Positions 30,466 to 64,000 of a stretch of 64,000 nt of DNA are shown in pieces. The stretch is from Thermoplasmata archaeon. Lineage in GTDB: Archaea; Thermoplasmatota; Thermoplasmata; GCA-020350865. The notes beneath the pieces were generated by a model that saw nothing but the letters and a program-made list of their open reading frames with translations, was not told the DNA's origin and searched no databases. The stretch spans positions 3,745,002 to 3,809,001 of the forward strand of contig CP070751.1 of assembly GCA_020348445.1 (NCBI GenBank), given 5' to 3'. The position numbers and the translations under genes are program-made. Every line of letters begins with the position of its first letter. The stretch's first letter is position 1.

Positions 30466-30470
30466 TATGA

Positions 30471-33077: not shown

Positions 33078-33245
33078 AAAGTCATCTCCATAATCGCAAA
33101 ACAAGTAAAAAACCAATTTTACGATCTTTTAGACCTACAGGTTAATTTTATTTAAGCCTTTGGTTACAATTATCGGCCAGGGGAAAAATAGGAATAATCT
33201 GTCTATAATCCGGTAATTAGCCTGGAGTTCTATATAAAGTGACTT

Positions 33246-33692
33246 TCAGTACATCTTATACGGGCTCGGTCCCAGAGATTTAATGGTATCAGTGAAATCC
33301 TTCATCAGCTCAGCAAATCTCTGTCCCTCGGAGGCAGATACCCATTCCAGGCGGTATCGCTCGGGCTCGATTCCAAGGTCCTCTAACATTAGAAAGAGGG
33401 CATCTGCCCTTTTTTCTGCCTTAAGGTTACCCTCTAGGTAATGGCAATCCCCTGGGTGGCAGCCGCACATGAGCACTCCGTCGGCACCTTTTGAGAGTGC
33501 ATCGATAACAAGGTTTGGATGCACCATGCCAGAGCACATTACACGAATTATACGTATATTGTGGGGGTATTGCAGTCTAGAAGTACCTGCCAAATCAGCC
33601 CCTGTATATGAACACCAATTGCAGCATATTGCCAGTATTAACGGCTCGAATTCCTCTTCTTGCGTTACACCCTCAGCAGCCCCTTCTTCCAT
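33246..33692 (-). CDS. mvhD: MvhD [2Fe-2S] subunit (stand-alone, short)
   Basis: CCNWCSYTGAD, MCSG, GCHPGDCHY, EWVSASEG. Confidence 0.94.
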   Translation of the reverse strand: MEEGAAEGVTQEEEFEPLILAICCNWCSYTGADLAGTSRLQYPHNIRIIRVMCSGMVHPNLVIDALSKGADGVLMCGCHPGDCHYLEGNLKAEKRADALFLMLEDLGIEPERYRLEWVSASEGQRFAELMKDFTDTIKSLGPSPYKMY

Positions 33693-36600
33693 TTATACCA
33701 CCTCCAGTGCAGCTCCAATCATTGCAGATATTTGATCCAGTGTAAAACCTTTGACCATAACGCCCCTCTTCGGGCATGTGGCCATGCACACACCGCAGCC
33801 CTTACAAGCAGCCTCGTTTCGCTCCACAGTCTTCTTCACATTTCCGTTTCTCATGTACTCTATCAACGTCAGAGCATTGAATGGGCAGGGATCAATACAA
33901 TATGCACATCCATCACAGTTTTCGTCGATGATCTCCGATATCGTTGGCTCAAGCTCCATGATCTCATCAGAAAGAATCGTGCATGCCCTGGATACAGCTC
34001 CACAAGCCTGGGATATACTCTCATCAATGAATTTTGGGCTGTGTGCCAGGCCACATAAAAACACCCCTTCGGTTGCGAAGTCCACGGGCCGAAGTTTCAT
34101 ATGGGCCTCCAGGAAGAACTTGTCCTTTGAGAGCGGGATCTTGAGCATCTTAGCCAATTCTTCATTATCTGGCTGCGGCAAAGTGGCTGCTGAAAGCACC
34201 ACATATTCTGGTTTTATTTTGATATGCTCTCCTAGGATCGGATCGTTTATAGATACTACCAGATCATCGCCTTCTTTGGTAACCTCAGGTTTGTTTTCGT
34301 CATCGTACCTAATGAACCTCACTCCCTTGTCAGCAGCTTCCCTGTAGTAGTCCTCCCTGAAACCATAAGATCTGATGTCCTTGTAGAGTACGATTATTTG
34401 AGCATCTGGATTCTTTTCCTTGATCTTCAAGGCATTTTTAATGGCATCTGCACAGCATATCCTGCTGCAGTAAGGTCTTTCCTCTATCCTTGAGCCAACG
34501 CATTGGATCATTACAACACTGTTTGGTTTGATTTCATCCTTAGCAAGTTTCCCCTCAAGGTCCATTTGGGTAAGAACGCGGCTATCTTCCCTGTATAAAT
34601 ATTCAGTAGGTTTGTATTCTTGACCTCCTGTAGCTACAATAACAACTCCATGCTCGATTTTTGTGTCATCGGAAAGTTCGGTTGTGAAGCTGCCCATGAA
34701 TCCTTCTATGCTTTTTACAGTGGTTTCAAGATGTAACTTTATTTTATCGTCATTTTTAACCTTCTCGATAATCTCCTTTAACATCTTCTGCGGATCCTCA
34801 CCTTTCTCGCTTAACACATGGTAAATATTTCTGAGATTTCCCCCGAGCTCCTTCTCCCTTTCCACAAGATGAACTTCAAATCCCTGCTTTGCCATCTCAA
34901 GTGCTGCGGTCATGCCAGAAAGTCCACCACCTATGACAAGTCCAGATTGGAATACATTCAGTTCCAGTTTATACAATGGCTCAAGCAGTCTTGATTTTGC
35001 TACAGCCATTCTAACGAGGTCCTTTGCCTTTTTAGTAGCGTTATCAGCATCATGCATGTGCACCCATGAGCACTGGTCCCTGATATTTGCCATTTCAAAG
35101 AGATAGGGATTCAATCCACCTTCCTTTGTGGTGCTCCTGAAAAGAGGCTCATGGGTTCTTGGTGTGCATGATGCCACGATTACTCTGTTCAGGTTGTGCT
35201 CCACAATTTTCTCCTTGATTCCCTTTTGGGTGTCCTCGGAACAGGTATAGAGGTTGTGTTCGGCATGTTCAACATTTGGTAACGTTTTTGCATATTCCAC
35301 GACATCTGGAACGTTCACCACACCACCGATGTTGATTCCACAGTGGCAGATAAAGACTCCGATTCTGGGATCCTCACCTAAAACATCCCTTTCTGGTGGG
35401 TACTCCTTGGGAGTGATCATCTTCCCTCTCTCAGAGGAGATAATGGATGATGCTTTGGCTGCTGCTCCACTTGCCTGGGCCACCGTATCTGGGATGTCCT
35501 TGGGACCGTTGAAAACACCGCTCACATAAACTCCTTCCCTTGATGTTTCCAAGGGTGAGAAAACTCCAGTTGAGCAGAAGTCATACTTGTTCAAATCAAT
35601 ACCCAGTGTCTCTGCAAATTCCTTCACGTTTTCAGGGGGTCTGAAACCTGTGGATAAAACAACCATGTTGAATTCTTCTTCCTTAACCTCCCCATCTTCT
35701 ACATATTTGATTATGAGGTTGTTAGTTTCAGGTACCTCACGAACCTCGGCCACCCTGCATCGTGTGAACTTGATCTTGTGCTCCTCCTGGGCTCTCGTGT
35801 AGTAATCATCGAATTCCTTACCAAAGGCTCTCAGGTCCATGAAGAAAATATGGGATTTCAAGCCCTCTGAATGCTCCTGAGCAATTATCGCCTCTTTCAT
35901 TGCGAACATGCAACATACTGAGGAACAATATTCGCTTCCTGCTTGGCTGTCTCTGCTTCCCACGCATTGTAAGAACGCCACCTTTTCTGGAATGTCCCCG
36001 TCAGAAGGTCGCATCACTGTACCTGCGAAGGGTCCTGTTGCAGAAAGGAATCTTTCAAATTCCATACTCGATACTACATTCTTGTATCTGCCGTAGCCAT
36101 ATTCGGTTTTCAGAGAAGGATCGAACATACTATATCCCGGGGATAAAACGATGGAACCCACATTCAAATCGAACTTCTGCTCCTCTTGGTCGTACTCCAC
36201 TGCCTCGGCCTTGCATTCCTCCTGGCAGATGCCGCATCCTATGCATTTTTCCTTGTCTATCATGAATTTCAGAGGAACTGATTGAGGGTAACGAATAAAG
36301 GTCGCCCCCCTTCTAGTCAATCCCCAGTTGTACTCATCTATTGCTTCAACGGGACATTTTGCACCACAGACTCCGCATCCTGTACATTTTTCTTCATTGA
36401 TCCTCCTTGGCCTTCTTACGAGATTAACGTTGAAATTTCCTGCCTCACCTTCAATTGATTCGATCTCTGTGTTGCTGATGACCTCGATATTATGATGTCT
36501 TCCCGTTCCCACGAGCTTTGGAGCCATGATGCACATGGCGCAGTCGTTTGTTGGAAAGGTTTTATCCAACTGGGACATCACACCTCCTATTGAGGGGAGC

Positions 36601-36710
36601 TTATCTATTAGATAAACCTTGAATCCTGCATCTGCAAGATCAAGTGATGATTGCATTCCGGAAATTCCACCCCCGACAACAAGAACCGCTCCCACCTTAT
36701 CATTGCTCAT
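33693..36710 (-). CDS. hdrA: HdrA-family protein, ~1000-aa tandem two-flavin-domain type
   Basis: Two GGGxxG Rossmann motifs, KTFPTNDCAMC, inserted 2x[4Fe-4S], CSSVCC, CHCG/ASCTP, CSRICC, C-terminal 2x[4Fe-4S]. Confidence 0.93.
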   Translation of the reverse strand: MSNDKVGAVLVVGGGISGMQSSLDLADAGFKVYLIDKLPSIGGVMSQLDKTFPTNDCAMCIMAPKLVGTGRHHNIEVISNTEIESIEGEAGNFNVNLVRRPRRINEEKCTGCGVCGAKCPVEAIDEYNWGLTRRGATFIRYPQSVPLKFMIDKEKCIGCGICQEECKAEAVEYDQEEQKFDLNVGSIVLSPGYSMFDPSLKTEYGYGRYKNVVSSMEFERFLSATGPFAGTVMRPSDGDIPEKVAFLQCVGSRDSQAGSEYCSSVCCMFAMKEAIIAQEHSEGLKSHIFFMDLRAFGKEFDDYYTRAQEEHKIKFTRCRVAEVREVPETNNLIIKYVEDGEVKEEEFNMVVLSTGFRPPENVKEFAETLGIDLNKYDFCSTGVFSPLETSREGVYVSGVFNGPKDIPDTVAQASGAAAKASSIISSERGKMITPKEYPPERDVLGEDPRIGVFICHCGINIGGVVNVPDVVEYAKTLPNVEHAEHNLYTCSEDTQKGIKEKIVEHNLNRVIVASCTPRTHEPLFRSTTKEGGLNPYLFEMANIRDQCSWVHMHDADNATKKAKDLVRMAVAKSRLLEPLYKLELNVFQSGLVIGGGLSGMTAALEMAKQGFEVHLVEREKELGGNLRNIYHVLSEKGEDPQKMLKEIIEKVKNDDKIKLHLETTVKSIEGFMGSFTTELSDDTKIEHGVVIVATGGQEYKPTEYLYREDSRVLTQMDLEGKLAKDEIKPNSVVMIQCVGSRIEERPYCSRICCADAIKNALKIKEKNPDAQIIVLYKDIRSYGFREDYYREAADKGVRFIRYDDENKPEVTKEGDDLVVSINDPILGEHIKIKPEYVVLSAATLPQPDNEELAKMLKIPLSKDKFFLEAHMKLRPVDFATEGVFLCGLAHSPKFIDESISQACGAVSRACTILSDEIMELEPTISEIIDENCDGCAYCIDPCPFNALTLIEYMRNGNVKKTVERNEAACKGCGVCMATCPKRGVMVKGFTLDQISAMIGAALEVV

Positions 36711-41292: not shown

Positions 41293-41315
41293 CTTCTACA
41301 CCCCTATTTTTATTA

Positions 41316-41600
41316 TCACTCATCCTCCACTCCCGACATCAATCCTCTTACACAAACTGAGAAATTACATGAATCTGATCTTGCCCTCTCACAGTAATGA
41401 CATCTTAAAGTCAGAAGCACTTCTCTTACGATCCATTCCTTTGTCTCGTCATCAACATCTGGAAGGTTCTTTTTAATCTCCATAATACTTTTACTCTGTA
41501 CATCCTTCCATTTTGGTTGTGTTGATAGGTGCATTCTCTTTTTCCATGCATTCCTCATCTCTTCGATCTTCTTTTGTTCTTCTTCGTTTAATTCACTCAA
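41316..41600 (-). CDS. Uncharacterised small Cys-motif protein, paralog 1
   Basis: LLTLRCHYCERARSDSCNFSVCVRGLMSG; start overlaps the upstream hdrA stop. Confidence 0.8.
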   Translation of the reverse strand: MSELNEEEQKKIEEMRNAWKKRMHLSTQPKWKDVQSKSIMEIKKNLPDVDDETKEWIVREVLLTLRCHYCERARSDSCNFSVCVRGLMSGVEDE

Positions 41601-44620: not shown

Positions 44621-44928
44621 TAATAAATCCCCCCTATTTCTCTTCCTGACATAAGTCCTCGGATACAGATTGAGAAGTTACATTGATCTGTTCTTGCCCG
44701 CTCGCAACTATGGCATCTTAAAGTTAACAAAAGTTCTCGGGTTATCTTTTTCTTTGTTTCCTCGTCGATGTCTGGGAGACTTGTTTTACAAAGTTGTATG
44801 ATCTTATTTTGTGTTTGTCCCCAACTTGGTATGGTGGATATACGGCTTTTGTAATCCCATCTGCTTCTTATTTCATCAACAGTTTTCTTATCCTTTTTGC
44901 TCAATTCGCTTTTAGTGTTCTTGGTCAC
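44620..44928 (-). CDS. Uncharacterised small Cys-motif protein, paralog 2
   Basis: LLTLRCHSCERARTDQCNFSICIRGLMSG; overlaps both neighbours. Confidence 0.8.
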   Translation of the reverse strand: MTKNTKSELSKKDKKTVDEIRSRWDYKSRISTIPSWGQTQNKIIQLCKTSLPDIDEETKKKITRELLLTLRCHSCERARTDQCNFSICIRGLMSGREIGGIY

Positions 44929-45710
44929 TTTATCCCCTCCTCTACTGCTAAATATAAAGGAGTATCATTGTCAATCCTGTCAAGCATCACCAGACCTCGG
45001 TCCCTTAACGTCACAATATGTTGTAATACTCGATTGGGGGGAAGTTCTAGGCGCTGAGCCAGTTCATCTACTGATAACGCTTCATCCCTAACTTCAAAAA
45101 TAATACTACATCTATCTAATTCATAATTGATGGCGGCGTCAAGTACGGTGTCTATTTCCTCCTGAGGAACTTTCTCATTGTATACATTTCCTTCCATAAC
45201 CAAATCCAATTCTCTTGAAACAAGTAACTTCAATCTAAAGTCCTTCACAGCATTTTTTGCTGCAAATAATGCCTTAAGAATATCAACGTTAGGTGTTGTT
45301 CCGCTAACGGGTGATGGCCCAATTTCTTTTATTTGCTTTGTGAATTCTCGGATAGTTTCTGCAAATCGTTCGCCTTCGGAAGCAGAAATCCATTCTAGTC
45401 TGAGTCGCTCCTCTTCAAACCCTATCCTCTTCAATAATTTCTTTGTCAGTTTTACCCTCTTTTCAGCAAAATAATTACCTGTTTGATAATGGCAATCTCC
45501 AAAATGACATCCACCAACAAGGATCCCATCTGCACCTTGGATGAACATTTCCAAGATAAGAGATGGTTCGACCCTACCACTACACATTACCCTTACTATC
45601 CTAAGATTTGCAGGATATTGATATCTGCTCACACCTGCCAGATCAGCACCTGCATATGAGCACCAGTTGCATAAAAATCCCAGAATTTTAGGTTCGAATT
45701 TTGTTGCCAT
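44925..45710 (-). CDS. mvhD: MvhD with C-terminal winged-helix-like extension
   Basis: MvhD motifs; SVDELAQRLELPPNRVLQHIVTLRDRGL. Confidence 0.88.
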   Translation of the reverse strand: MATKFEPKILGFLCNWCSYAGADLAGVSRYQYPANLRIVRVMCSGRVEPSLILEMFIQGADGILVGGCHFGDCHYQTGNYFAEKRVKLTKKLLKRIGFEEERLRLEWISASEGERFAETIREFTKQIKEIGPSPVSGTTPNVDILKALFAAKNAVKDFRLKLLVSRELDLVMEGNVYNEKVPQEEIDTVLDAAINYELDRCSIIFEVRDEALSVDELAQRLELPPNRVLQHIVTLRDRGLVMLDRIDNDTPLYLAVEEGIK

Positions 45711-48721: not shown

Positions 48722-49026
48722 CAGATCACCTCCTGACCAGAAAGAAGACCGCGAATACAAACTGAGAAGTTGCATTCATCGCTACGGGCTCTTTCGCAAC
48801 TGTGACATCTAAGTGTTAGAAGCATATTTCTTGTGATTTTCTTCTTTGTCTCTTCATCGATATCAGGTAACGAGCTCAGGCATTCCTGGATGATCTTTGT
48901 TTGAACCTGTCCCCATCTGGGAAGTGTGGATATTCTATCCTGGTTTCGCCATGAATCCTTTATCATCCTGACCTTAGCCTCTGAACCTTTTTTAGATGTT
49001 TTTGAAGGAGCCTTTTCTTTCTTCAT
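48721..49026 (-). CDS. Uncharacterised small Cys-motif protein, paralog 3
   Basis: LLTLRCHSCERARSDECNFSVCIRGLLSG. Confidence 0.8.
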   Translation of the reverse strand: MKKEKAPSKTSKKGSEAKVRMIKDSWRNQDRISTLPRWGQVQTKIIQECLSSLPDIDEETKKKITRNMLLTLRCHSCERARSDECNFSVCIRGLLSGQEVI

Positions 49027-49829
49027 CTAAGCACCTCCTCTTTTGGAGTTATGTAAAGGGGCATCACACCGTCGAATCTATCCACCACGACAAGGCCTCT
49101 GTCTTTGAGGGTAACAATATGCTGCAATACTATTTCAGGGGATAGATTAATCTGTGAGGCGATGTCCAAAACTGAATAAGGCCCGTCTATGGTCATCAAT
49201 AGTATTTTCTGCCTGGCCATCTCCTCATCAATGGCAGAGTCCATGAGATTATCGAACTCCTCTTGTGAAATTGTTTTGTCGTAGACATTGCCTTTTTCTG
49301 TTAGGTTGATTTCTCGGGCCACCAAGGACCTCAATCTAAAATCTCTTGCTGCATTTTTGGCAACAAAAAGACCTTCCAGTTTATCAACATCAGGATTCTT
49401 CCCAGCAACAGGGCTTGGCCCTAAAGTTTTTACCTCGTTTACAAAATCCTCCACAACCTTGGAAAACCTCTCACCCTCAGATGCTGATACCCATTCCAGG
49501 CGCAATCTGTTAGGATTAAGACCAGACTTTTCGATTAATTTCTTTGCGAGTTTTATTTTCTTCTCAGTGTAGTAATTACCAGTAATATAATGGCAGTCAC
49601 CAAGGTGACAACCACCTACAAGTACTCCATCTGCACCATGTATCAACATCTCGATTATGAGAACTGGATCCACTCTTGAACTGCACATGACCCTGACAGT
49701 TCTTGTGTTTGTCGGGTACTGGTACCTGGAAACTCCAGCCAAATCAGCTCCTGCATATGAGCACCAGTTGCATAGAAATGCAATGATCTTGGGTTCGAAT
49801 CCAGATGCTGTTGCTTCTTCTTCACTCAT
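49023..49829 (-). CDS. mvhD: MvhD with C-terminal winged-helix-like extension
   Basis: MvhD motifs; SVLDIASQINLSPEIVLQHIVTLKDRGL. Confidence 0.88.
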   Translation of the reverse strand: MSEEEATASGFEPKIIAFLCNWCSYAGADLAGVSRYQYPTNTRTVRVMCSSRVDPVLIIEMLIHGADGVLVGGCHLGDCHYITGNYYTEKKIKLAKKLIEKSGLNPNRLRLEWVSASEGERFSKVVEDFVNEVKTLGPSPVAGKNPDVDKLEGLFVAKNAARDFRLRSLVAREINLTEKGNVYDKTISQEEFDNLMDSAIDEEMARQKILLMTIDGPYSVLDIASQINLSPEIVLQHIVTLKDRGLVVVDRFDGVMPLYITPKEEVLR

Positions 49830-51730
49830 GTCCCTACCTCCTCCAACGCCGCAAGGGCCTCAGCCGTGAGCTGCTCATCTGTATAGTGAGTCATTGTAAT
49901 GGCCTTCTCAGGACATATGGAGCCGCAAGTTCCGCAGCCTTTGCATGCCGCTACAATGACCTCTGCAAGCCCTTCCTCATCAAATTGAATCGCACCATAT
50001 GGGCATACCACTTCACATGACTTGCACCCCGAGCAGCGCTCCCTGTCCACATAGGAAACTATGGCCTCAGCCTGAACATAACCCAGGCTCATGGGTATTG
50101 AAGCACGGGATGCGGCACCATATGCTTGGGCAACGGCCTCGGTGATGTTTGCAGGTCCGTGAGCAGTCCCGCAAAGGAAAATACCGTCAGTAGCAAAATC
50201 AACTGGACGAAGTTTAACATGGGCCTCCAAGAAGAATTCATCTCTACCCAAGGGAACCTTGAGCATCTTTGAAAGTTCCTGGGCATCTGGTCTCTGGGTA
50301 AGAGGTGTTGCCAATATTATCAGATCAGGATTCATCTTTCTGTCGGCCTTCAATGTCTCGTGGTAATAGGATACTGTGAGTTTTCCATCCTCCATTGAGA
50401 CCTTTGGTGGATTCTCAGGGACGAAGCGAACGAACTTTACCCTCTGCTCCCTGGATTTATTGTATAGCAGCTCCTGCTCTATACCATATGTTGTGATTCC
50501 TCTGTTGAAGACCGTGACATCCACTGCTGCCCCTCTTTCTTTGGGTCTTTCCTCGCCTCTTTCTGCACCCCTTCTTCTTCCACCTCTCCTTCCCCTTCTG
50601 TCCCTTCTGCTTCTTCTTCTGGATTCACCCTCCTCCTCCTCTGGTTCCTCTGCTTTTTCCTCTTCTTTATCCGAAACCGCCTTTTCATCCACACTGGCTT
50701 CCTCTACTTTAGCTTCTGCATCACCGCCCTTTGAGGCCATCTCCATGACCTTCATTGCGTTCTTGACTGTAACAGTGCAGCATATTCTAGAGCAGTATTC
50801 CTTGTCCTGACCCCTTGCTCCCGAACATGTTATGAAGGCAACACTCTTTAAATCCGCGGGGACTTTGTCTTCCTTTACCATCTTCTCAAAGTCCGTTAAT
50901 GTTATTATATTGTCGTGTTCTCCAAGACCATAGAGTCCCTTTGGTCTGTATTCATCGGCACCTGTTGCAACGATGATGGTTCCCACACCAATTTCCTTGT
51001 CCTCCCCATTCACATTTAAAACGGCATCGTACTTGCCGATGTAACCGGTAAGTGATTTTAAGGTGGTATTCTTGTAAAGTTGAATCTTGTCATTTGCCTC
51101 CACTTTTTTAATCAATCCCTCATAGGCTTTTGCACTGCTTTCTTGGGTTTGATAAAGGGTGCTCAATTTTCTTAGAAATCCTCCGAGTTCAGGTTCTTTT
51201 TCTATCAAATGTGTTTCAAAACCCTGATTGGCCAGATTGAGGGCCGCTGTCATACCTGCTATACCACCACCTATCACCAGAGAAGAGGGTCTAACATCGA
51301 TTTTCACCTCCTCTTGAGGCTCCAAGAGCACGGCCCTTGCCACACCCATTTTTATCAGATCCTTGGACTTTGCCGTGGCTTTCTCCTGCTCTTTCATATG
51401 AACCCATGAGCAGTGCTCCCTGATGTTCACGAATGTGAAAAGGTATTTGTTCAGTCCTGCCTCCTCGCAGATTCTCATAAAAAGTGGAGCATGTGTTCTG
51501 GGTGTGCATGATGCCACAATCACCCTGGTAAGATTCTTCTCCTTAATCGCATTTTTTATGGCTGTCAAACCATCATCAGCACATGTATAAAGATTGTTCT
51601 CGGCGTGAACCACATTTGGCAATGTTTTTGCGTACTCTGCAACGTCCGGTACATCAACAAATCCCCCGATGTTCACACCGCAGTGACATACGAATACACC
51701 GATTCTGGGCTCTTTTATCTCCATGGCCAT
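49826..51730 (-). CDS. hdrA: HdrA-family protein equivalent to the C-terminal part of the tandem type, with a charged low-complexity insertion
   Basis: PRIGVFVCHCG, ASCTPRTH, GGGIAG, CSRICC, C-terminal ferredoxin; E-rich then R-rich insert. Confidence 0.9.
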   Translation of the reverse strand: MAMEIKEPRIGVFVCHCGVNIGGFVDVPDVAEYAKTLPNVVHAENNLYTCADDGLTAIKNAIKEKNLTRVIVASCTPRTHAPLFMRICEEAGLNKYLFTFVNIREHCSWVHMKEQEKATAKSKDLIKMGVARAVLLEPQEEVKIDVRPSSLVIGGGIAGMTAALNLANQGFETHLIEKEPELGGFLRKLSTLYQTQESSAKAYEGLIKKVEANDKIQLYKNTTLKSLTGYIGKYDAVLNVNGEDKEIGVGTIIVATGADEYRPKGLYGLGEHDNIITLTDFEKMVKEDKVPADLKSVAFITCSGARGQDKEYCSRICCTVTVKNAMKVMEMASKGGDAEAKVEEASVDEKAVSDKEEEKAEEPEEEEGESRRRSRRDRRGRRGGRRRGAERGEERPKERGAAVDVTVFNRGITTYGIEQELLYNKSREQRVKFVRFVPENPPKVSMEDGKLTVSYYHETLKADRKMNPDLIILATPLTQRPDAQELSKMLKVPLGRDEFFLEAHVKLRPVDFATDGIFLCGTAHGPANITEAVAQAYGAASRASIPMSLGYVQAEAIVSYVDRERCSGCKSCEVVCPYGAIQFDEEGLAEVIVAACKGCGTCGSICPEKAITMTHYTDEQLTAEALAALEEVGT

Positions 51731-53037: not shown

Positions 53038-53236
53038 GCCCCCTTAAGGATCGAACATGATTACATATTACCTTCCCTTTATACACTGTACATAGGGGAG
53101 GAGGGAATTGCTCTTTTATGATATATATTTTATGACGATATATAACACTTTTTAGATGGTATTCGCCGAAATACCACTGGTATTTTTCCATATCTCGTCA
53201 TGGATATCTGCGGTATATTTTTCAATAGTTATGGTA

Positions 53237-54364
53237 TCATTTTTCATTATCATCCATATTTTTATTTTTCAATGCCCTTTCTCTCTTCATATTTGCAAAT
53301 TCTGAAATTTTTTCTAATTGTTCCTGGGCAAGATTATCGGATCCTCCTTGGCTTTTATCTAACTCTTCTATGAACCTGTGGCGAATTGCATCTTGATAAA
53401 TCGCCTCTCCCAAATCTGTTCTGATCAATACAGTGGTCCATCCCTCAGGTGAACCCAAACCGCCAAAAGAAAGGTCTGCAAAGTCGTTTGCAAAATCTGA
53501 GCAGGCAAGACAGGCAGAGCGGGCAAATTCCTCCATTTTTTCCAAGGGAATGTGTTTTGTATCACCATTTTTTTGCTTGATTATGAAATCCTCCCTGATA
53601 TTCATATTCTCGATGTCATCAAAATTCACGCCAAGGATTTTTTCCATATCTCTTTTTTTAGATACATCAAAGGAAAAATTCTCGGTGCAAAAAAGGCCGA
53701 AAACGAACTTCACTACATGGGAGGGTACAACATGCAAACTTTGCATCTTTCTCAGGGTATGTACTTGACACGGTGTGCTCACAACAACTATTTTCACCAA
53801 ATCCATATTGGTAATTTCTTTTATTGCAAACATGGTTGGAGAATATGTGGAGAACCTGCTAAGCTCCTCGACACCACAAATTCCCGTGAATCTCGAGCCG
53901 GCAGCAGAGAGAACCTCTTCGTAGGAGGTGGCTATCATGGGCTCTCTGGCAAATTGCGCAGTCTTCTTGGATACCACAGCACCATCGATCATTTTTTTTT
54001 CCAATAAGAAATGTAGAATTGAAGTGACAACTCCACCATCTGTTGCATTTTTTCGAATCTCTGGGTTTGTACTTCTGGCAGATACAATATTTTTAAACCT
54101 ACCAACGGGTGAAACCCAATGATAAGTGTCTTTTAGATCCTGGTCAAGAATACTAATCTGTGGGCAGATAATATAGCAGATACCACATTCAAGGCAGCTT
54201 TCTTCATCCAAATATTTTGGCCTTCCATCCTCGCCAAAACCGATGGCCATAAGCTCTCCTGCAGAGCAAAACGAGACACACCCTCCACAGGATCCGCATA
54301 ATCCAGGTTCATGAACTTCTTTGACCAGGTCCTTGAATGTCTTTGTCTCATCAATTTCGTCCAA
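53237..54364 (-). CDS. frhB: Coenzyme F420 hydrogenase/dehydrogenase beta-subunit family protein (FrhB/FdhB-like) with N-terminal ferredoxin
   Basis: CGSCGGCVSFC, CLECGICYIICP, TDGGVVT, AAGSRF, TPCQ, GLFCTENF, CLACSDF, ADLSFGG...GWTTVLIRT. Confidence 0.88.
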   Translation of the reverse strand: MDEIDETKTFKDLVKEVHEPGLCGSCGGCVSFCSAGELMAIGFGEDGRPKYLDEESCLECGICYIICPQISILDQDLKDTYHWVSPVGRFKNIVSARSTNPEIRKNATDGGVVTSILHFLLEKKMIDGAVVSKKTAQFAREPMIATSYEEVLSAAGSRFTGICGVEELSRFSTYSPTMFAIKEITNMDLVKIVVVSTPCQVHTLRKMQSLHVVPSHVVKFVFGLFCTENFSFDVSKKRDMEKILGVNFDDIENMNIREDFIIKQKNGDTKHIPLEKMEEFARSACLACSDFANDFADLSFGGLGSPEGWTTVLIRTDLGEAIYQDAIRHRFIEELDKSQGGSDNLAQEQLEKISEFANMKRERALKNKNMDDNEK

Positions 54365-54496
54365 AACCCCAATGCCCCCAATCCCAGGTATAAAATTGGA
54401 GATTAAAAAACTTATTATTATCCGAAAGCTATGAATTTTGAAAGCAAGTAATAGTTAAAATAGTTCGTAACAAATAAGAAAATATTTTAAAGGAAC

Positions 54497-54913: not shown

Positions 54914-55241
54914 TCTCCCACCTCCTAATCGCCGAAGGAGCATTAATATCATATGTAAAATTCGAGCAGGTGAGGGCGAGTTTCTTTTTCCCCCATGTTC
55001 CGATGAAAAACTGATGTTTTTCAAGGCCTCGGGAAATCTTTGATTTCCCAAGGTTTCTTTGCGAGCCCGAGCCATCGTGGTGGACAGAAATTGAATCTAA
55101 ACACTTACTGTCCTCCACTGTGTAGTGGAAAACATATTTAGTATTAGGGGTATTGTTTTCCACGACAGCAGAGAATTTTACCTCAAAGAAAAAGGCGGGT
55201 TCGAAATCAGTCAATTATGGTACCCCCTTTTTTTGAGCAGG

Positions 55242-57008
55242 TCACCCCTCCACCTCCATCTTATATTCTAAAATCGCTTTGATCATTGGAAGTATCTGCT
55301 CTCTTTTGAAGTGGCGAATTGAAATGGCCTTGTTACAGCATCCTGCCGAGCATTTACCATCCCCTTGACAAAGAATGGGGTCCACATGGGATACTTTTCT
55401 CCCATCCTTGACTACAATCACTGCGGCATTGAATTCGCAATTTTCTGCACATTTACCGCAGCCAACACACATTTCTTCATCAACAACTGCAACCCCGCCT
55501 CCAATGTATGTTGAGCCCTTTTGAAGCAGTTTTATGGCATTGGATGCAGAAAGCCTGGCATCCTCGATTGAATATCTGATTCCCTTTGGTCCCTGGGCGC
55601 AGCCCGCAATGAAAATTCCCCTACGCTCTTCAGGAGTGAGCATGGGATTCATGTATTTTATAAAACCGTCTATGTCCAATGGCAGGTGTAAAGTTTCAGC
55701 CAATTTTGTGGTTGCATCTCTTGCCTCCTGACCCACAGAGAGCACGACAAGATCACTTTCGATCTCAAGGGGTGTTCCGGCATCCACATCCTCACATCTT
55801 AGAATTACCTTGCCCTCCTTCTCGAAAATCTCTCCAACCCTTCCCCTAACGAAATTTACTCCCGCAGCTTTAGCTTCCTCATAGAATTCCTCAAAGCCCC
55901 TGTAAGGGCCCCTTAAGTCCATGTAGTGAATGTAAACTTCAGTACCAGGATAGCGTTTTTTGATTTCCATGGCCTGGCCAATTGCGTATGTGCAGCATAC
56001 CAGTGAGCAGTGGGGATTTCCCTTGTTGGCATCTCTTGAGCCCACACATTGAATGAAGTTAACGGTCTTGGGTATCTTGCCGTCCGAGGGTCGGTGAAGT
56101 TTTCCCCCTTTATCTCTTTGGGCCATGATCATCCTTTCGAGTTCGATTGTGGAAATAACATTCTTGTGGTCATAGCTGTATTCCTTCAATTTTGAGGGAT
56201 CGAAGATCTGGGAACCAGTAGCAATTATTATCGTGCCAACATCGATTTCCTTTTCCCCATCAGGAGTTTTTATTTTCACATGTCGGTTTCCCAAACCACC
56301 TGTGATTTCGGTAACTTCCGAGGATAGGAGGACCTCTATTTTATCATGCTGATTAACATCCTCGATCTTCGGTGTTAGGACGCAGCTTTTACAGGATTGA
56401 ATGCAGCATATCCCGCAGTTGTGCGTGGGAAAAGTCATGGAGAGCTCGTATGCCCTTCCACCGAGTTTTTCAGTTTTTTCCACGAGGTACACCTGATACC
56501 CTGCGTTTGCGATATCCAAGGCGGCCTGCATTCCCGCCACACCACCACCGATCACCAATGTTGATGGAATTATGTCCACCTTTGTATCCTCAAGTGCTTC
56601 AAGAGTATTTGCTCTGGCAACTGAACCTGCGATTATGCGCTTTGCCTTTTGTGTAGCTTCGTTTTTATCCTCGTGTATCCATGCACATTGTTCTCTTATA
56701 TTTGCCTGCTCATATTGATATTTGTTAAGGCCTCCTTCAACAACTCCTCCCCCGATCGTGGATTCGTAAATCTTTGGAGTACAGGCAGCAACAACCACCG
56801 CATCAAAATTTTCTTTTTCACATTCCTCAGAAAGAAACTTCTGGCCGGAAACCGAGCATAGGGAATCATGCTTCTTTACAACTTCTACTCCCGGTAATGC
56901 CTCAGCAAATTTAATGATTTCATCAAAATCGATTTTATCTGTGATGTTATCATAACAACTGCATATAAAGAGTCCAACTTTTTTCTCTTTTTTTTGGTCC
57001 AAGACCAT
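55242..57008 (-). CDS. hdrA: Divergent HdrA-family protein lacking the inserted ferredoxin domain
   Basis: VGLFICSC, AACTPK, GGGVAG, CSLVCC, C-terminal ferredoxin; ATG 57008 after GGGGTG. Confidence 0.85.
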   Translation of the reverse strand: MVLDQKKEKKVGLFICSCYDNITDKIDFDEIIKFAEALPGVEVVKKHDSLCSVSGQKFLSEECEKENFDAVVVAACTPKIYESTIGGGVVEGGLNKYQYEQANIREQCAWIHEDKNEATQKAKRIIAGSVARANTLEALEDTKVDIIPSTLVIGGGVAGMQAALDIANAGYQVYLVEKTEKLGGRAYELSMTFPTHNCGICCIQSCKSCVLTPKIEDVNQHDKIEVLLSSEVTEITGGLGNRHVKIKTPDGEKEIDVGTIIIATGSQIFDPSKLKEYSYDHKNVISTIELERMIMAQRDKGGKLHRPSDGKIPKTVNFIQCVGSRDANKGNPHCSLVCCTYAIGQAMEIKKRYPGTEVYIHYMDLRGPYRGFEEFYEEAKAAGVNFVRGRVGEIFEKEGKVILRCEDVDAGTPLEIESDLVVLSVGQEARDATTKLAETLHLPLDIDGFIKYMNPMLTPEERRGIFIAGCAQGPKGIRYSIEDARLSASNAIKLLQKGSTYIGGGVAVVDEEMCVGCGKCAENCEFNAAVIVVKDGRKVSHVDPILCQGDGKCSAGCCNKAISIRHFKREQILPMIKAILEYKMEVEG

Positions 57009-57061
57009 ACACCCCTTCAGCAATCGCAGCATCTTATGGTCATATTACCAATATCACTTCT

Positions 57062-58207
57062 TTACTTTATTCTTTCTATTATAGCCGATATCAGATCACC
57101 AACAGGAATATCCACTTTCTCCTTCTCAACAGGTATCTCCTTCCATGTGGCACAAGTGAAGTGAATCACACATTTAGGACAAGTTGTAATGAGCTTATCG
57201 GCCCCTGTATTTTTCGCCTCCATTAACCGATCTATCTGCATTATCTTAGAGAGGGATTCACAGGTTGCAAAGGCATTTACTCCGCAGCATGCACTGTTCT
57301 CCTTTATGTTCTCCATTTCAATCAATTCAAATCCCGCAGCTTCAATGAGTTCCCTGGGGCTGTCGTAGATCTCCAAATGCCTTCCAAGTCTGCACGGGTC
57401 ATGGTATGTAACTTTCTCATTTCCATCGCTTTTAAATTCCAGTTTCCCGTCATCCACCAAATCCATTAGATAATCTGTGATGTAAACCAGCTCAAAATCC
57501 AGATCACCTGCAATATCCTGATAATCGAAATCAAATGTTCTCATCCCTTCTGGGCAGGAAAAAACCACGGTCTTTGCACCAGCTTCCTTTATTGCCTTGA
57601 TATTGAGATTCATTAATTTGTCAAAATTATCTTCATCCCCTGTCCAATTGAGATCGTGACCGCAGCATACCTCGTTTTTGCTCATTGCTGGTGTGATACC
57701 GGCTTTGTTCAACACCCTTACATTGTTTTTAGCAATATCAAGGATACCGGCCTTCCTTTCCTCGAAAATCTTATCTAGATGAGCCTGGCAGCCAGAGAAA
57801 TAGTACACATCACCCTTTTCTGCAACCTTTAAATCATCGGTAACCCAGCTTAACCTGTTCTGTGGTAACTGGTGAGATTGGATTCTGGCAATTGTCTGCA
57901 TCAATCCTCCCTGGGAGCACGTGGGCTCAAATCCGTCTAAAACAGATTCACTTCTAAGTCCTCTGATGAACTCGGTGTAATCCACTTTGTAAGGACACAT
58001 CTGACTGCACATGGCACATGTAGTACAGCGCCATATGTCCATGTTCTGGGCAAGGCCCCCCTCCACACCCTCCAATGCCTTAACCACTATCAGTCTTGGA
58101 GCAAAGTTCTGGTCCAGTTTGGCAACGGGACATACAGTCGTGCATTTACCGCATTCAACACAATCATATGCTCCTGTGTCATCGATGAGATCATCTATTG
58201 CGGACAT
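57062..58207 (-). CDS. hdrD: HdrD-like Fe-S protein (2x[4Fe-4S] plus two CCG domains)
   Basis: CVECGKCTTVCP, CTTCAMCSQMCP, VCCG, YHDPCRLGRH, ACCG, TCPKC. Confidence 0.82.
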   Translation of the reverse strand: MSAIDDLIDDTGAYDCVECGKCTTVCPVAKLDQNFAPRLIVVKALEGVEGGLAQNMDIWRCTTCAMCSQMCPYKVDYTEFIRGLRSESVLDGFEPTCSQGGLMQTIARIQSHQLPQNRLSWVTDDLKVAEKGDVYYFSGCQAHLDKIFEERKAGILDIAKNNVRVLNKAGITPAMSKNEVCCGHDLNWTGDEDNFDKLMNLNIKAIKEAGAKTVVFSCPEGMRTFDFDYQDIAGDLDFELVYITDYLMDLVDDGKLEFKSDGNEKVTYHDPCRLGRHLEIYDSPRELIEAAGFELIEMENIKENSACCGVNAFATCESLSKIMQIDRLMEAKNTGADKLITTCPKCVIHFTCATWKEIPVEKEKVDIPVGDLISAIIERIK

Positions 58208-61200: not shown

Positions 61201-61728
61201 GCCAATGCATATCTCCTGGTCAATACAATGAACAGGTGGAACAGCTTGAGGATACTTTACATGGATGGCTTTTCTTCTCTTTAGGCCCTTGTTGTACTCG
61301 TCCTTTACTTCAATGGGGCATCTTTGTGTACAAATACCGCATCCCGTACAACGACTTTCATCCACATATCTCGGCCTCTTGGTGAGGGTGACCTTGAAAT
61401 TTCCTGCTCCTCCTTCTACATTCTCCAAATCTGCATTTGTGATGAGCTGGATATTGTGATGGCGTCCAGTCTCCACAAGTTTGGGAGCCATGATGCACAT
61501 TGCACAATCATTTGTAGGGAAGGTCTTATCAAGCTGGGACATTGCCCCACCGATGCTGGGGCTGTTATCGAGGACATAGACTTTGAATCCTGAATCTGCC
61601 AGATCCAGTGCAGACTGCATGCCTGAGATTCCGCCACCTATTATGAGAATCGCGCCTACCTTTTTTGATTCAGCTTCCTTAATGACTGAAGCAGCTTCTA
61701 CCTCGACCTGTCCATCCTTTGCCTCTAT
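58195..61728 (-). CDS. hdrA: HdrA (tandem type) fused to a C-terminal MvhD; start uncertain (ATA 61728 or frameshifted ATG 61715)
   Basis: The Rossmann motif KVGAILIIGGGISG is encoded in frame upstream of ATG 61620; C-terminal CCNWCAYAGAD...GCHIGDCHY. Confidence 0.88.
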   Translation of the reverse strand: MEAKDGQVEVEAASVIKEAESKKVGAILIIGGGISGMQSALDLADSGFKVYVLDNSPSIGGAMSQLDKTFPTNDCAMCIMAPKLVETGRHHNIQLITNADLENVEGGAGNFKVTLTKRPRYVDESRCTGCGICTQRCPIEVKDEYNKGLKRRKAIHVKYPQAVPPVHCIDQEICIGCGLCETQCEAEAIKYSQEKKEINIQVGSIIMSPGFKEFDILSKRKEYGYGKFPNVISSLEMERMLSATGPFNGLVLRPSDGEIPKKVAFIQCVGSRDRTSGNPYCSSVCCMFAIKEAVIAQEHAPGLKSTIFFMDMRAFGKEFDDYYIRAEEEHGIGFVKNNRVSGVKEDKNTNNLILNYVDEGELKEEEFDLVVLSVGMDSPDTALELAEKLGVELNDYNFCETSVTSPLETNRKGVFVSGAFSAPKDIPDTVAQASGAAACASSLIASERDKLVEVKEYPPEKEVAQEEPRLGVFICHCGINIGGVVKVPEVVEYVKNLPNVVYAESNPYTCSQDTQQKIKSKIEEHNLNRVVVASCTPRTHEPLFQNTVREAGLNPYFFEMANIRDQCSWVHMHEPEAATRKAKDLVRMAISKTRLLEPLYKVEIPINQSALVIGGGISGMMAVLELAEHGFAAHIVEKEKELGGNLKRLHYMLTGENLQEFLKETIDKINSNDKINVYVNSEIKNIEGCVGDFKTTISENGEEKTLEHGAVIVATGGISYEPKEYLYGQDERIITQLDFEERLGKGQVDAKTVVMIQCVGSRDETRTYCSRVCCSEAVKNALKLKELNPEANIYILYKDMRTYGFREIFYEEAARSGIIFIRYYDDSKPDVQLAGGELSVSIFDHFLGENIDINPDLLVLSTATIPSVDNEKIAKMLKVPLSKDGFFLEAHMKLRPLDFATEGVFLCGLAHSPKFLEECISQAKGTVSRAATLLSKKFFEANAVISVVDESKCRGCGECVDICEFGAPELITDDEGKKHSKINEALCKGCGACAASCCNNAIITKHFKNDQIHTMIDSALEGHKLREEFEPFILAFCCNWCAYAGADLAGVSRFQYPPNIRVIRVMCSGRISPSFIMEALHKGVDGILVAGCHIGDCHYISGNEKAEIRVKNVKELIGLLGMDERRVRLEWISASEGKRFAEVMTEFVNKVKELGPNPLNPIEQSIKPQKEEIECPQ

Positions 61729-62030
61729 CCCACCACCCCCTTCCCTGAAAGCAATCCTCTAATGCACACCGAGAAATGACAGGCATCGCTTCTTGCCCTC
61801 TCGCAGCTGTGGCATCTTAACGTGAGAAGTAATTCTCTTGTGATTTTCTTTCTTGTCTCTTCATCTATATCGGGGAGGTTTTCCTTGCAATCCTGAATGA
61901 TCTTATTTTGAACCTGAGCCCAGGCGGGTAAGGTGGAGACCTTGTATTTTTTTCTCCAAGAGTTGCGAATATTTTTGATCTTGTCCAACTCTTCTTCTTT
62001 TATTTCCTTGTCACCATTATTAATTTCCAT
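61725..62030 (-). CDS. Uncharacterised small Cys-motif protein, paralog 4
   Basis: LLTLRCHSCERARSDACHFSVCIRGLLSG; ATG 62030 after AGGGG. Confidence 0.8.
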   Translation of the reverse strand: MEINNGDKEIKEEELDKIKNIRNSWRKKYKVSTLPAWAQVQNKIIQDCKENLPDIDEETRKKITRELLLTLRCHSCERARSDACHFSVCIRGLLSGKGVVG

Positions 62031-62044
62031 TTTTGTTCCCCTAT

Positions 62045-62839
62045 TCAATCACTTTGGACATAGTTATATATTGGAGATGAGCCTTCGATTTTCTCCAGGC
62101 CCACCAATCCCCTGTCCCGAAGTACCACCAGGTGTTCTAGGACCTCTCTTGAGGGGGTTTTAATGTCCTGGGCTATATCTTTGACTGACCTGGACTTTTT
62201 CATAAGTGACCTCAGAATTCTTTGTCTGAGCATCTCCTCCTCAATAATTTCATCCAGTATCCCATCAAATCGTTCATCTTCGATTTTGTTGTTGTAGACA
62301 TTCCCCTTTTCAATTATGTTGTATGCTTTTGCGCAAAGTAATCTCAACCTGAAATCGTTGGCTGCATCCCTTGCTATTAACAATTGCTCCATAATTTTCA
62401 GGTCAGGGGATTTGCCCGAGATCGGGCTTGGCCCAAGTTCCTTAATTTTGTTGGTCATGTCCTTCATTATTTCGGCAAATCTAACAGATTCTGATGCAGA
62501 GACCCATTCCAATCTTAGCCTCTCTGGGTTCAACCCTACCCTTTGAAGCAGACTCTTGGTCATTTCTATCCTATACACTGTATGATAATTACCCTCCATG
62601 TAGTGACAGTCCCCGGGATGGCACCCGCCAATAAATACTCCATCAATACCCTGTATGAACATCTCCAGTATTATGGAAGGCTCGATTCTGGAACTGCACA
62701 TGACCCTAACGATTCTGATATTATGGGGGTACTGTATCCTGCTCACACCTGCCAAATCGGCTCCGGCATAACAGCACCAATTACAAAGGTAGCCTATTAT
62801 CTTTGGATCGAACTCATCCAATGCCCCATCCCCATTCAC
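62045..62839 (-). CDS. mvhD: MvhD with C-terminal winged-helix-like extension
   Basis: CNWCCYAGAD, MCSSR, GCHPGDCHY; SVKDIAQDIKTPSREVLEHLVVLRDRGL. Confidence 0.88.
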   Translation of the reverse strand: MNGDGALDEFDPKIIGYLCNWCCYAGADLAGVSRIQYPHNIRIVRVMCSSRIEPSIILEMFIQGIDGVFIGGCHPGDCHYMEGNYHTVYRIEMTKSLLQRVGLNPERLRLEWVSASESVRFAEIMKDMTNKIKELGPSPISGKSPDLKIMEQLLIARDAANDFRLRLLCAKAYNIIEKGNVYNNKIEDERFDGILDEIIEEEMLRQRILRSLMKKSRSVKDIAQDIKTPSREVLEHLVVLRDRGLVGLEKIEGSSPIYNYVQSD

Positions 62840-64000
62840 TTGATCTCCTCCTCAAGCAATGGCAACCCTTGAGCTATTAGCTGGTCCAAGGTGTAATGAT
62901 TCATGGTAATTGCCCGCTCGGGACACGCGGCGGCACAAGAACCACAACCTTGGCAAAGGGCCTCCATGGTTCTCATTTTCTTCTTCCCTTCCACTGGCTG
63001 TATGGCTCCATAAGGGCATACCTGCTCGCATGTTTTACATCCAATACACCTTTCCTCATCTATCCATGAGGTGATGGGTTCGTTTTGGGCAAATCCTCTA
63101 ATCATTGGAATTGCCGCCTTCATTGCGGCTCCACTTCCCTGTACAAGGGACTCGGCTATATTCTTGGGGCTCTGAAGGCATCCTGCAAGATAAATTCCCT
63201 CGACACTGGCCTCGATGGGTGCCAGTTTGATGTGCTTTTCCATACAAAAGCCGCTTCCGCATTGAGTCACCTTAAAATGTCGAAGCAAATCAGAAGTATC
63301 AGGATGATGTGCAACCATTCCCAAAACGAGAATAACTGTGTCCACATTGAGCTCCAATTCCTCTTCTGAGAGTTCATCGAAAACGAGAATCCTGGCTGAT
63401 CCCTTCAGATCTTCAACCTTTGGTTTGTTATTGAATTCATATTTTATGAACTGGACACCGAGCTCACAGGCCTTCCTGTACATCTCCTCCCCGCCTTTAC
63501 CATAGGTTCTGATATCTCGGTAAAGAACCATCACATTGATTCCCATCTTTTTCAGCTGGATTGCCTGTTTCATGGTGGTTTTACAGCAGTATCTCGAGCA
63601 ATCACCAATTCCTTCAGTGCCCTTGCGATCAAAGAGCCGCTCGCACAAAGGATCTCGGGAGCCTACACACATGATAAATGCTATGCTTTTTGGCTCTCTA
63701 TCGTTGATTACGATCTCGCCCTTTGTGGGGCCTTCGGGATTCAGTAACCTCTCAAGGCCAATATTGCTGATTACGGTGATTGCCTCAAGGCTATCTGGGC
63801 TGTCCTCGTAACAGTATTCCCCCTGTGGATCGTATACATCAGAGCCGATCGCCAAGACAACTGTTCCGGCCTTAAGCCGTTTAAAGTCGTTATCAAGGTA
63901 CTTGATTGATTCTGGGGTTATGGCTCCTGTGGGACATACTTCGGCACATTTACCACATTGATTGCAATCCCTGACCACGATGTTGTAAGACTTGGGCCAT
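62836..64000 (-). CDS. hdrA: HdrA-family protein (5'-truncated by window edge)
   Basis: Frame open to base 64000; CNQCGKCAEVCP, CVGSR, CSRYCC, HIKLAP, C-terminal ferredoxin. Confidence 0.88.
   Translation of the reverse strand, partial: WPKSYNIVVRDCNQCGKCAEVCPTGAITPESIKYLDNDFKRLKAGTVVLAIGSDVYDPQGEYCYEDSPDSLEAITVISNIGLERLLNPEGPTKGEIVINDREPKSIAFIMCVGSRDPLCERLFDRKGTEGIGDCSRYCCKTTMKQAIQLKKMGINVMVLYRDIRTYGKGGEEMYRKACELGVQFIKYEFNNKPKVEDLKGSARILVFDELSEEELELNVDTVILVLGMVAHHPDTSDLLRHFKVTQCGSGFCMEKHIKLAPIEASVEGIYLAGCLQSPKNIAESLVQGSGAAMKAAIPMIRGFAQNEPITSWIDEERCIGCKTCEQVCPYGAIQPVEGKKKMRTMEALCQGCGSCAAACPERAITMNHYTLDQLIAQGLPLLEEEIK

Follow-up and report, generated by a model that had tools for sequence, protein, structure and literature searches.

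A minus-strand array of HdrA and MvhD genes

We analyzed a 64-kb stretch of DNA from a Thermoplasmata archaeon (contig CP070751.1), here called the window, which spans positions 3745002-3809001 of a single-contig genome of 5,156,303 bp. Every large open reading frame (ORF) from position 33246 to the window end lies on the minus strand, and these ORFs form an array of genes for HdrA-type flavoproteins and their MvhD-type partners. The array covers 33 kb (33246-66189) and overruns the window end by 2.2 kb. Coordinates are given in window numbering, and genes are named A (HdrA), D (MvhD), and S (a small protein with a Cx2Cx7Cx4C motif), numbered in transcription order. Domains were called on the window ORFs with Pfam and, additionally, with NCBIfam; the numbering of Glu356, Lys409, and the cysteines is that of HdrA in Protein Data Bank (PDB) entry 5ODC. 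The array and the convergent hydrogenase genes are as follows.

62836-64000, minus: A1, C-terminal part of a fused HdrA; the full gene (1117 aa) extends to 66189
62045-62839, minus: D1, long MvhD, 264 aa, MvhD core with winged-helix extension
61725-62048, minus: S1, small Cx2Cx7Cx4C protein, 107 aa
58195-61620, minus: A2, fused HdrA with a C-terminal short MvhD, 1141 aa as called
57062-58207, minus: HdrD-like protein, 381 aa, 4Fe-4S dicluster domain and two CCG domains
55242-57032, minus: A3, single-TrxR HdrA of the C-half type, 596 aa
54497-55075, minus: D3, short MvhD, 192-aa ORF with the domain at residues 62-184
53237-54364, minus: FrhB/FdhB-like flavin iron-sulfur protein, 375 aa
51730-53037, minus: A4N, N-half-type HdrA, 435 aa, TrxR core, inserted ferredoxin, Cys194/197
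49826-51730, minus: A4C, C-half-type HdrA, 634 aa, N-terminal FeS domain, TrxR core, C-terminal ferredoxin
49023-49829, minus: D4, long MvhD, 268 aa
48721-49026, minus: S4, small Cx2Cx7Cx4C protein, 101 aa
45710-48775, minus: A5, fused type II HdrA, 1021 aa as called; the true start is probably ~17 codons downstream
44925-45710, minus: D5, long MvhD, 261 aa
44620-44928, minus: S5, small Cx2Cx7Cx4C protein, 102 aa
41597-44620, minus: A6, fused type II HdrA, 1007 aa, domains mapped onto 5ODC HdrA
41316-41600, minus: S6, small Cx2Cx7Cx4C protein, 94 aa
40507-41292, minus: D6, long MvhD, 261 aa
37499-40510, minus: A7, fused type II HdrA, 1003 aa
36707-37498, minus: D7, long MvhD, 263 aa
33693-36710, minus: A8, fused type II HdrA, 1005 aa, last HdrA unit of the array
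33246-33692, minus: D8, short MvhD, 148 aa, last adaptor
29389-31916, plus: MvhG-like (358 aa) and MvhA-like (481 aa) [NiFe] hydrogenase subunits, convergent with the array

The order of transcription is A1-D1-S1-A2::MvhD-HdrD-A3-D3-FrhB-A4N-A4C-D4-S4-A5-D5-S5-A6-S6-D6-A7-D7-A8-D8. In total the array holds nine HdrA ORFs (six fused forms, the split pair A4N/A4C, and the single form A3), eight MvhD domains, four small proteins, one HdrD-like protein, and one FrhB-like protein; eight HdrA and MvhD units were counted. The HdrD-like protein is the sole CCG protein, and neither hdrB nor hdrC is present in the array. A3 lacks the inserted ferredoxin, has Gly at the Lys409 position, and carries a Cys-rich insert. 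The MvhG/MvhA pair is VhuG-/VhuA-like by NCBIfam and was the only such pair that BLASTP detected in the genome, where the FrhB-like gene likewise has one copy. The original prediction, made from the letters and ORF translations of the window, had read the same gene order, strand, and domain content; the ORF list and Pfam bear it out, including its nine HdrAs, eight MvhD domains, one CCG protein, and one mvhGA pair. Its five ~1000-aa double-flavin HdrAs become six fused forms once A1 is read complete.

The array is conserved in congeners and under purifying selection

Fused HdrA paralogs within the array are 47 to 79% identical, the MvhDs 50 to 62%, and the small proteins 55 to 70%; the DNA copies are 60 to 85% identical, with a repeat period of 3.8 to 4.1 kb. 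Gene content and order are matched in a congener whose fragmented assembly is independent of this one (G002) and which lacks only D5-S5-A6. Given this DNA divergence and the shared order, misassembly is excluded. A second congener (G001) carries the array in two distant pieces, near 1.689-1.702 Mb and 3.114-3.132 Mb (loci L084-L086), with breakpoints inside A4C and A1; both of these genes are truncated, and the others are intact with a low ratio of nonsynonymous to synonymous substitutions (dN/dS). Every paralog has a 1:1 ortholog in the congeners, at 79 to 95% identity. Values of dN between orthologs were 0.03 to 0.19, dS was at or past saturation, and dN/dS was 0.02 to 0.18 wherever it could be computed, the small proteins included. 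These results confirm that the array is real and under purifying selection. They also bear out the description of the paralogs in the original prediction as diverged yet intact: the dN/dS check that it proposed gave no sign of decay, and the cofactor cysteines are kept.

Two observations, the truncation of A1 and A4C in G001 and an anomaly at the 5' end of A2, would suit an assembly artefact, recent amplification, or decay of the gene family. The A2 frame is open upstream to an in-frame TAG near 61757, and its first GxGxxG motif is encoded upstream of the first ATG. Within the affected segment (61621-61760, minus strand), the ATG of the orthologs is replaced by CTG and an ortholog Ser codon by TAG, which is an ordinary stop codon in this genome (362 of 1,549 long ORFs). 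A noncanonical start, an N-terminal truncation, and a sequencing error are all possible. Set against these two anomalies are the modest identity of the DNA copies, the same order in an independent assembly, the low dN/dS of each gene, and the retention of all cofactor cysteines, by which the artefact or decay reading is effectively refuted.

Two flavin domains with complementary features in each fused HdrA

The domain structure of the fused HdrAs was mapped with A6 as the reference. Residues 9-371 align to residues 146-508 of 5ODC HdrA, which comprise the thioredoxin reductase-like (TrxR) FAD core with the inserted ferredoxin; residues 449-607 align to residues 2-160 (N-terminal FeS domain), and residues 858-998 align to residues 504-646 (C-terminal ferredoxin). 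Between residues 607 and 858 lies a second, divergent TrxR-like core. Pfam, a motif scan, and alignment of the halves agree that each fused protein contains Pyr_redox_2 twice and GxGxxG twice. By these features the ~1000-aa proteins of the array classify as the published type II fused HdrAs, in which both TrxR domains keep the residues of flavin-based electron bifurcation (FBEB) and for which there is no biochemistry in methane-metabolizing archaea (PMC12054007).

Some features are common to both halves, and others are divided between them. The TrxR-cluster cysteines and GxGxxG occur in both. The equivalent of Glu356 is present in every half of A1, A2, A4, and A5-A8 except the C-half of A5, which has Asp, and the equivalent of Lys409 is present in all halves of the same proteins. 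The claim that both halves keep the Glu and Lys of the bifurcating FAD was thus sound apart from the Asp in A5 and the Gly of single-domain A3. Cys194/197 (NDCxxC) occurs in the N-halves only, and these lack the N-terminal FeS domain; the C-halves have that domain and lack Cys197, giving a complementary pattern. The inserted ferredoxin is likewise confined to the N-halves, save in A1, a deep paralog with this domain in both halves.

Thirty-one cysteines are invariant across the seven fused or split units: Cys194/197, eight in the inserted ferredoxin, four in each of the two TrxR clusters, five in the N-terminal domain, and eight in the C-terminal ferredoxin. Judged from these ligands, a type II HdrA would bind two FAD and seven [4Fe-4S] clusters, and a single polypeptide probably mimics an asymmetric HdrA dimer. 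BLAST of the N-halves against the C-halves gave no match below 1e-5, and their kinship is visible at the profile level only, which fits the published view that type II HdrA is a fusion of two distinct HdrA classes. In the copy of the PDB searched, no solved chain of at least 1000 aa turned up.

The second TrxR-like core of A4C is interrupted at residues ~330-400 by ~70 aa of charged low-complexity sequence in which Glu, Lys, and Arg abound; none of the other paralogs has this insert.

Long MvhDs carry a winged-helix extension

The FlpD (MvhD) domains of the array match Pfam with E = 1e-51 to 1e-56. Five of the eight are long forms of 261 to 268 aa, with an ArsR-like winged helix at the C terminus. 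An AlphaFold2 (AF2) model of D5, from a 38-sequence alignment, is a confident single body (mean predicted local distance difference test [pLDDT] score, 92.8; predicted template-modeling [pTM] score, 0.89), in which the MvhD core is followed by three helices and the winged helix, an extension of ~125 aa. Foldseek placed the core on the MvhD chain of 5ODH/5ODC with a root mean square deviation (rmsd) of 1.0 Å and 61% identity; the extension gave weak matches to ArsR/SmtB-type proteins (E about 0.01).

Such an extension could make the long MvhD a redox-sensing transcription regulator, its [2Fe-2S] domain sensing and its winged helix-turn-helix (wHTH) binding DNA. Weak Pfam and NCBIfam matches to ArsR, HTH_5, and HTH_20, a weak Foldseek likeness to HlyU, NolR, and SmtB, and an often basic recognition helix are in keeping with this. 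We nevertheless consider it improbable, since five copies lie in one operon, translationally coupled between enzyme genes, and the modeled extension packs rigidly on the MvhD core. Homologs also vary widely in the isoelectric point of the wHTH (4.4 to 10.5), and the wHTH is acidic in three of the five array copies; the lack of conservation weakens the regulator reading, though evidence from charge is suggestive only. Two precedents point the same way. One is a natural fusion in another congener (locus L088, G004:C73, positions 2186-6259, minus strand), a protein of 1357 aa in which an A1-type fused HdrA continues into an MvhD core and wHTH; HdrC-HdrB precede it and another fused HdrA follows. 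This fusion implies that a long MvhD belongs to the HdrA encoded upstream, with the wHTH at the free end. The other is BamF, from the BamDEF module of class II benzoyl-CoA reductase (Appel et al. 2026, bioRxiv 10.64898/2026.04.10.717634); this MvhD-like adaptor exceeds the usual length by more than 100 aa, and its wHTH serves as a protein-docking element for the input module.

A small four-cysteine protein at the HdrA junctions

The S proteins (94 to 107 aa) share the conserved Cx2Cx7Cx4C motif and have no Pfam match. We collected 86 homologs, all of ~100 aa and, wherever the source was named, from Thermoplasmata metagenome-assembled genomes (MAGs); the protein is specific to this lineage. The invariant core includes C72, C75, C83, and C88. 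The gene is invariably placed beside a long MvhD in the interval between two HdrAs, as D-S-A or A-S-D-A. In the ESM Atlas all scores were below 0.9 and no family emerged. Homologs are labeled "hypothetical" or "L44E"; the JGI label of ribosomal protein L44E goes back to an NCBIfam L44e match that is below threshold (E = 0.0025), and we rejected it.

The length of MvhD predicts the next gene

We next compared 79 related loci from several phyla, whose 1,253 ORFs were clustered and the clusters named by Pfam. Genes neighboring the fused HdrA-MvhD pair were HdrB (53/79 loci), HdrC (52/79), MvhG (38/79), MvhA (32/79), HdrD-like and GcvH-like (19/79 each), GltD/NfnB-like and NfnA-like (18/79 each), and FrhB-like (14/79). 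The recurrent order is a leading flavoprotein (a split HdrA, another fused or type III HdrA, or a GltD-like protein), then long MvhD, fused HdrA, short MvhD, and a terminal module, either HdrC-HdrB-MvhG-MvhA or an Flx-like set. Four Thermoplasmata loci (L004, L041, L043, and L050) show a shorter form of the array operon, with the order fused HdrA-HdrD-...-A4N-like-A4C-like-long MvhD-fused HdrA-MvhD-(fused HdrA-MvhD)-MvhG-MvhA-HycI. This layout is probably the ancestral form.

Long MvhDs (at least 220 aa, n = 74) and short MvhDs (at most 200 aa, n = 69) occupy different positions. An HdrA gene was next downstream of 67 of the 74 long forms, which were preceded by HdrA in 47 cases and by a GltD-like gene in 14. 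Only 4 of the 69 short forms had HdrA next downstream; otherwise HdrC (28), an Flx-like Fe-S protein (14), HdrD (4), or MvhG (3) followed. The array obeys the same rule: the long forms D1, D4, D5, D6, and D7 each precede an HdrA, with S alongside, and the short forms stand at the array end (D8), before FrhB (D3), and before HdrD (the MvhD fused to A2). We did not find this rule in the literature searched. Kept across phyla, it predicts which subunits touch. Over the five units from A4N to D8, intergenic gaps are -55 to +23 nt, a pattern that agrees with parsing this segment as one run.

GcvH-like genes, often in pairs, occur in loci L005, L009, L019, L021, L022, L031, and others, mainly from Bathyarchaeia, directly upstream of operons of the order GltD-like-long MvhD-fused HdrA-short MvhD-HdrCB-MvhGA; AOR genes lie near some of the Bathyarchaeia loci.

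Serial duplication within Thermoplasmata

Each congener genome has 17 to 27 matches to the HdrA N-terminal domain, compared with 0 to 11 in ~250 other genomes of the class (at most 15 scored per genome). No larger natural collection of these modules than the array was seen in the ~250 Thermoplasmata genomes sampled. In a FastTree phylogeny of 84 fused HdrAs, A2, A5, A6, and A7 fell in one Thermoplasmata-only clade (support, 100), interleaved with orthologs from other Thermoplasmata families, and A6 and A7 separated within the genus. A8 formed a separate Thermoplasmata branch; A1 belonged to a deep clade shared with another paralog of the same genome. The fused HdrAs of Asgard archaea and Bathyarchaeia formed their own clades. 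This topology indicates that the family is old and mostly vertically inherited, and that the array grew by serial duplication. The tandem expansion proposed from the sequence therefore proves to be a series of duplications inside Thermoplasmata, at genus level for A6/A7. As to its origin, we favor a genus-specific elongation of an older operon with two to four HdrA units. The closest locus, at 90% identity, lies in CP070739.1, a MAG labeled "Methanomassiliicoccales archaeon".

Genome context and the electron acceptor

The genome encodes 27 HdrA-like ORFs, 13 of them of at least 1000 aa, and has 22 FlpD matches. Its 41 CCG-domain matches correspond to ~21 proteins, against ~23 HdrA units, and nine CCG proteins outside the array have no HdrA within 8 kb; within the array the ratio is nine HdrA ORFs to one CCG protein. 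The near absence of HdrBC noted in the original prediction is thus a local feature, and genome-wide the deficit may not hold. The circumstance that it had named as a refutation, matching hdrBC sets elsewhere that explain the stoichiometry, is in part borne out by these ~21 CCG proteins, nine of them orphans. Three ETF-alpha genes and five GcvH-like genes are also found elsewhere in the genome. Four of the five GcvH-like genes are at or near Hdr islands, at 1.247 Mb and 4.56-4.59 Mb.

The MvhAGD and HdrA homologs, and an MvhD core 61% identical to the methanogen protein, would suit a canonical Hdr-Mvh system of the methanogen type, with CoM-S-S-CoB as its substrate. The genome, a single contig in which 35.3 kb is masked as N, gave no match to mcrA (PF02249, MCR_alpha), so CoM-S-S-CoB is an unlikely acceptor, as the original prediction had proposed. 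HdrB and HdrC are missing from the array, and its HdrAs are of the fused type II. The host also fits the non-methanogenic Thermoplasmata clades basal to Methanomassiliicoccales, for which "an unknown heterodisulphide" has been proposed (10.1101/2020.03.09.984617). Taken together, these points make a methanogen-type system extremely improbable. CODH/ACS is present in the genome, and dsrA was not found. No CofH above cutoff was found in the genome, so F420 was set aside as the substrate of the FrhB-like protein, and the FrhB label is a statement of homology.

The hydrogenase pair is flanked by maturation genes.

22505-23617, plus: HypD
27350-28414, minus: HypE-like protein
28779-29294, minus: HycI protease

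Two tandem genes for FKBP-type peptidyl-prolyl isomerases (141 and 154 aa; 31964-33116, minus strand) lie between D8 and MvhGA. The content of window positions 1-24500 is unrelated to the array and includes surface-type proteins (NosD/beta-helix with PKD domains, fn3, and WD40), two radical-SAM proteins (one B12-binding), a GH114-like protein, and an SRAP peptidase. No tRNA or Rfam match was found in the window. A sigma-70-type promoter scan gave fewer promoter-like sites than shuffled sequence and is uninformative for an archaeon. Elsewhere in the genome are three HdrA-like ORFs of 1470 to 1565 aa (C1 1249572-1254044, 3844686-3849098, and 4571486-4576183), which by length and domain matches fit the published "type III" (GltD-inserted) HdrAs (PMC12054007); one of them, 36 kb past the window end, is accompanied by an MvhD of its own. 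At 5.16 Mb the genome is the largest among ~250 class members sampled (others, 1.0 to 3.7 Mb), with a CheckM completeness of 81.7%. A 123-nt 3' piece of the small-subunit rRNA gene is visible (C1:692126-692248), and 35,300 genome bases are masked as N.

A model for the array

We consider it probable that the array arose by serial tandem elongation of an internal repeat of an old, widely conserved multi-flavoprotein Hdr/Mvh operon. The repeat unit would consist of a type II HdrA, a long MvhD acting as a [2Fe-2S] adaptor, and, in Thermoplasmata only, the ~100-aa four-Cys protein. The N-half of the HdrA would contribute the TrxR-FAD core, Cys194/197, and the inserted ferredoxin. Through its core the long MvhD would attach to the C-terminal ferredoxin domain of the preceding HdrA, through its winged helix it would dock a neighboring redox module, and short MvhDs would close each run and lead to the terminal module. 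The array may then be parsed as three runs: A1-D1-S1-A2::MvhD-HdrD; A3-D3-FrhB-like; and A4N/A4C to D8, beside MvhGA. MvhAG is the likely electron donor; it would oxidize H2, with electrons entering through the short MvhD D8. Ferredoxin would be reduced through the inserted ferredoxin domain, and the exit for high-potential electrons would be the TrxR-domain cluster, from which they would pass to HdrD or to products of genes elsewhere in the genome; orphan CCG proteins, ETF, and lipoyl carriers are candidate acceptors, and CoM-S-S-CoB is not. We infer the direction of electron flow, the acceptors, and the physical coupling of modules by long MvhDs from these arrangements.

In its strongest form, the run from A4N/A4C to D8 would encode one daisy-chained, multistage bifurcation assembly. 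Each long MvhD would be tethered to the C-terminal ferredoxin of unit n, its winged helix and the four-Cys protein would dock unit n + 1, and up to five fused HdrA units would stand in series between MvhAG and the terminal acceptors. The original prediction had proposed an oligomeric chain or a combinatorial set; the positional rule, the HdrA::MvhD-long fusion of L088, and the BamF precedent support the chain version indirectly, and we put it forward tentatively, as an unlikely though tangible prospect.

Alternatively, each HdrA-MvhD pair could be a separate soluble bifurcating or confurcating enzyme with its own CCG partner and substrate elsewhere, the clustering being a mere consequence of tandem duplication. 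The nine orphan CCG proteins, three ETFs, and five GcvH-like carriers would provide such partners, and the position-specific ortholog groups are old and diverged, as subfunctionalization predicts. Modules have also been gained and lost singly between congeners. Left unexplained would be the placement of long MvhDs between two flavoproteins and of short MvhDs at the ends, the translational coupling over five units, and the presence of a single hydrogenase and a single HdrD for eight units. A combinatorial set of this kind appears to us somewhat unlikely overall, but worth serious attention.

Several observations weigh against an elongated, coupled operon as we reconstruct it. The absence of D5-S5-A6 from G002 and the split array of G001, both instances of this turnover, suggest that the units are at least semi-autonomous; single modules look dispensable, which an obligate chain explains no better than independent modules do. 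The loci behind the positional rule were picked for an A6-like HdrA, and many are phylogenetically related. The AF2 model of the S protein has a pLDDT of 59, falling below 50 in the Cys-rich tail. A2 offers no ATG, GTG, or TTG between the TAG at ~61757 and its first GxGxxG motif. Finally, the analogy with benzoyl-CoA reductase is inexact: in BamE, a fused HdrA dimer, TrxR1 has the bifurcating FAD (Lys280) and TrxR2 a non-bifurcating FAD (Gln768) (10.64898/2026.04.10.717634), whereas the second FAD site in the array keeps Lys.

The locus bears on the role and the acceptor of HdrA-type bifurcating enzymes outside methanogens. A simpler, two-HdrA form of such a cascade appears to be widespread, in Asgard archaea, Bathyarchaeia, Thermoplasmata, and some bacteria. 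The locus is also relevant to the energy metabolism of Asgard archaea and Bathyarchaeia, which carry the shorter form.

Comparison with known systems

All domains and cluster ligands of HdrA in the HdrABC-MvhAGD complex (5ODC) are recognizable in the array, the MvhD cores superpose closely, and an MvhAG-type hydrogenase is adjacent. The array differs from that complex in having a fused, asymmetric HdrA in place of a homodimer and no HdrB or HdrC, and in the lack of mcrA from the genome. The best NCBIfam model for the fused HdrAs is that of Methanosarcina HdrA2, an HdrA-MvhD fusion of the M. acetivorans type (NF040770), which A6 matches at 1002.6 bits, below the cutoff of 1100. The pairing of an N-half HdrA with an MvhD-bearing C-half HdrA, in A4N/A4C-D4 and in A2::MvhD, presumably resembles that of QmoA and QmoB; QmoC is lacking and dsrA was not found in the genome, and Qmo-specific models were not run.

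Type II HdrA, including ANME HdrA3/4, offers a closer parallel, with a ~1000-aa chain, two TrxR-FAD cores, and the FBEB Glu and Lys in both. Chadwick et al. (2022, PMC9012536) described a "self-heterodimer" logic for the fused HdrA3/4 of ANME, in which, as in the array, Cys197 and the N-terminal FeS domain are complementary between the halves. An excess of HdrA over HdrBC, which the array shares, has also been reported for ANME (PMC9012536). The halves stand in the opposite order to those of ANME HdrA3/4: in the array, the Cys197 half without the N-terminal domain comes first. The host, unlike ANME, is a Thermoplasmata archaeon without methane metabolism, with eight units in 33 kb and 17 to 27 copies per genome.

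The BamDEF module resembles the array in its fused HdrA dimer and in its HdrD-like protein, BamD, a high-potential exit that passes its electron to ETF (10.64898/2026.04.10.717634) and does not reduce a heterodisulfide. BamF resembles the long MvhDs in its wHTH extension, a likeness drawn from the published description rather than from a sequence comparison; BamF is described with two Rossmann-fold domains, whereas the D5 model has one MvhD core and helices. The array contains neither the tungsten AOR (BamB; W-AOR BamBC) nor BamGHI, and the neighbor of each module is another HdrA instead of a HydABC-type unit. What the two systems would share is a principle, the hierarchical assembly of FBEB modules, which for the array is read from its genes. 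If the daisy chain is correct, it would extend the two-module coupling of benzoyl-CoA reductase to a homotypic HdrA cascade, and the locus, together with the 2026 structure of class II benzoyl-CoA reductase, makes the coupling of bifurcation modules in series directly testable.

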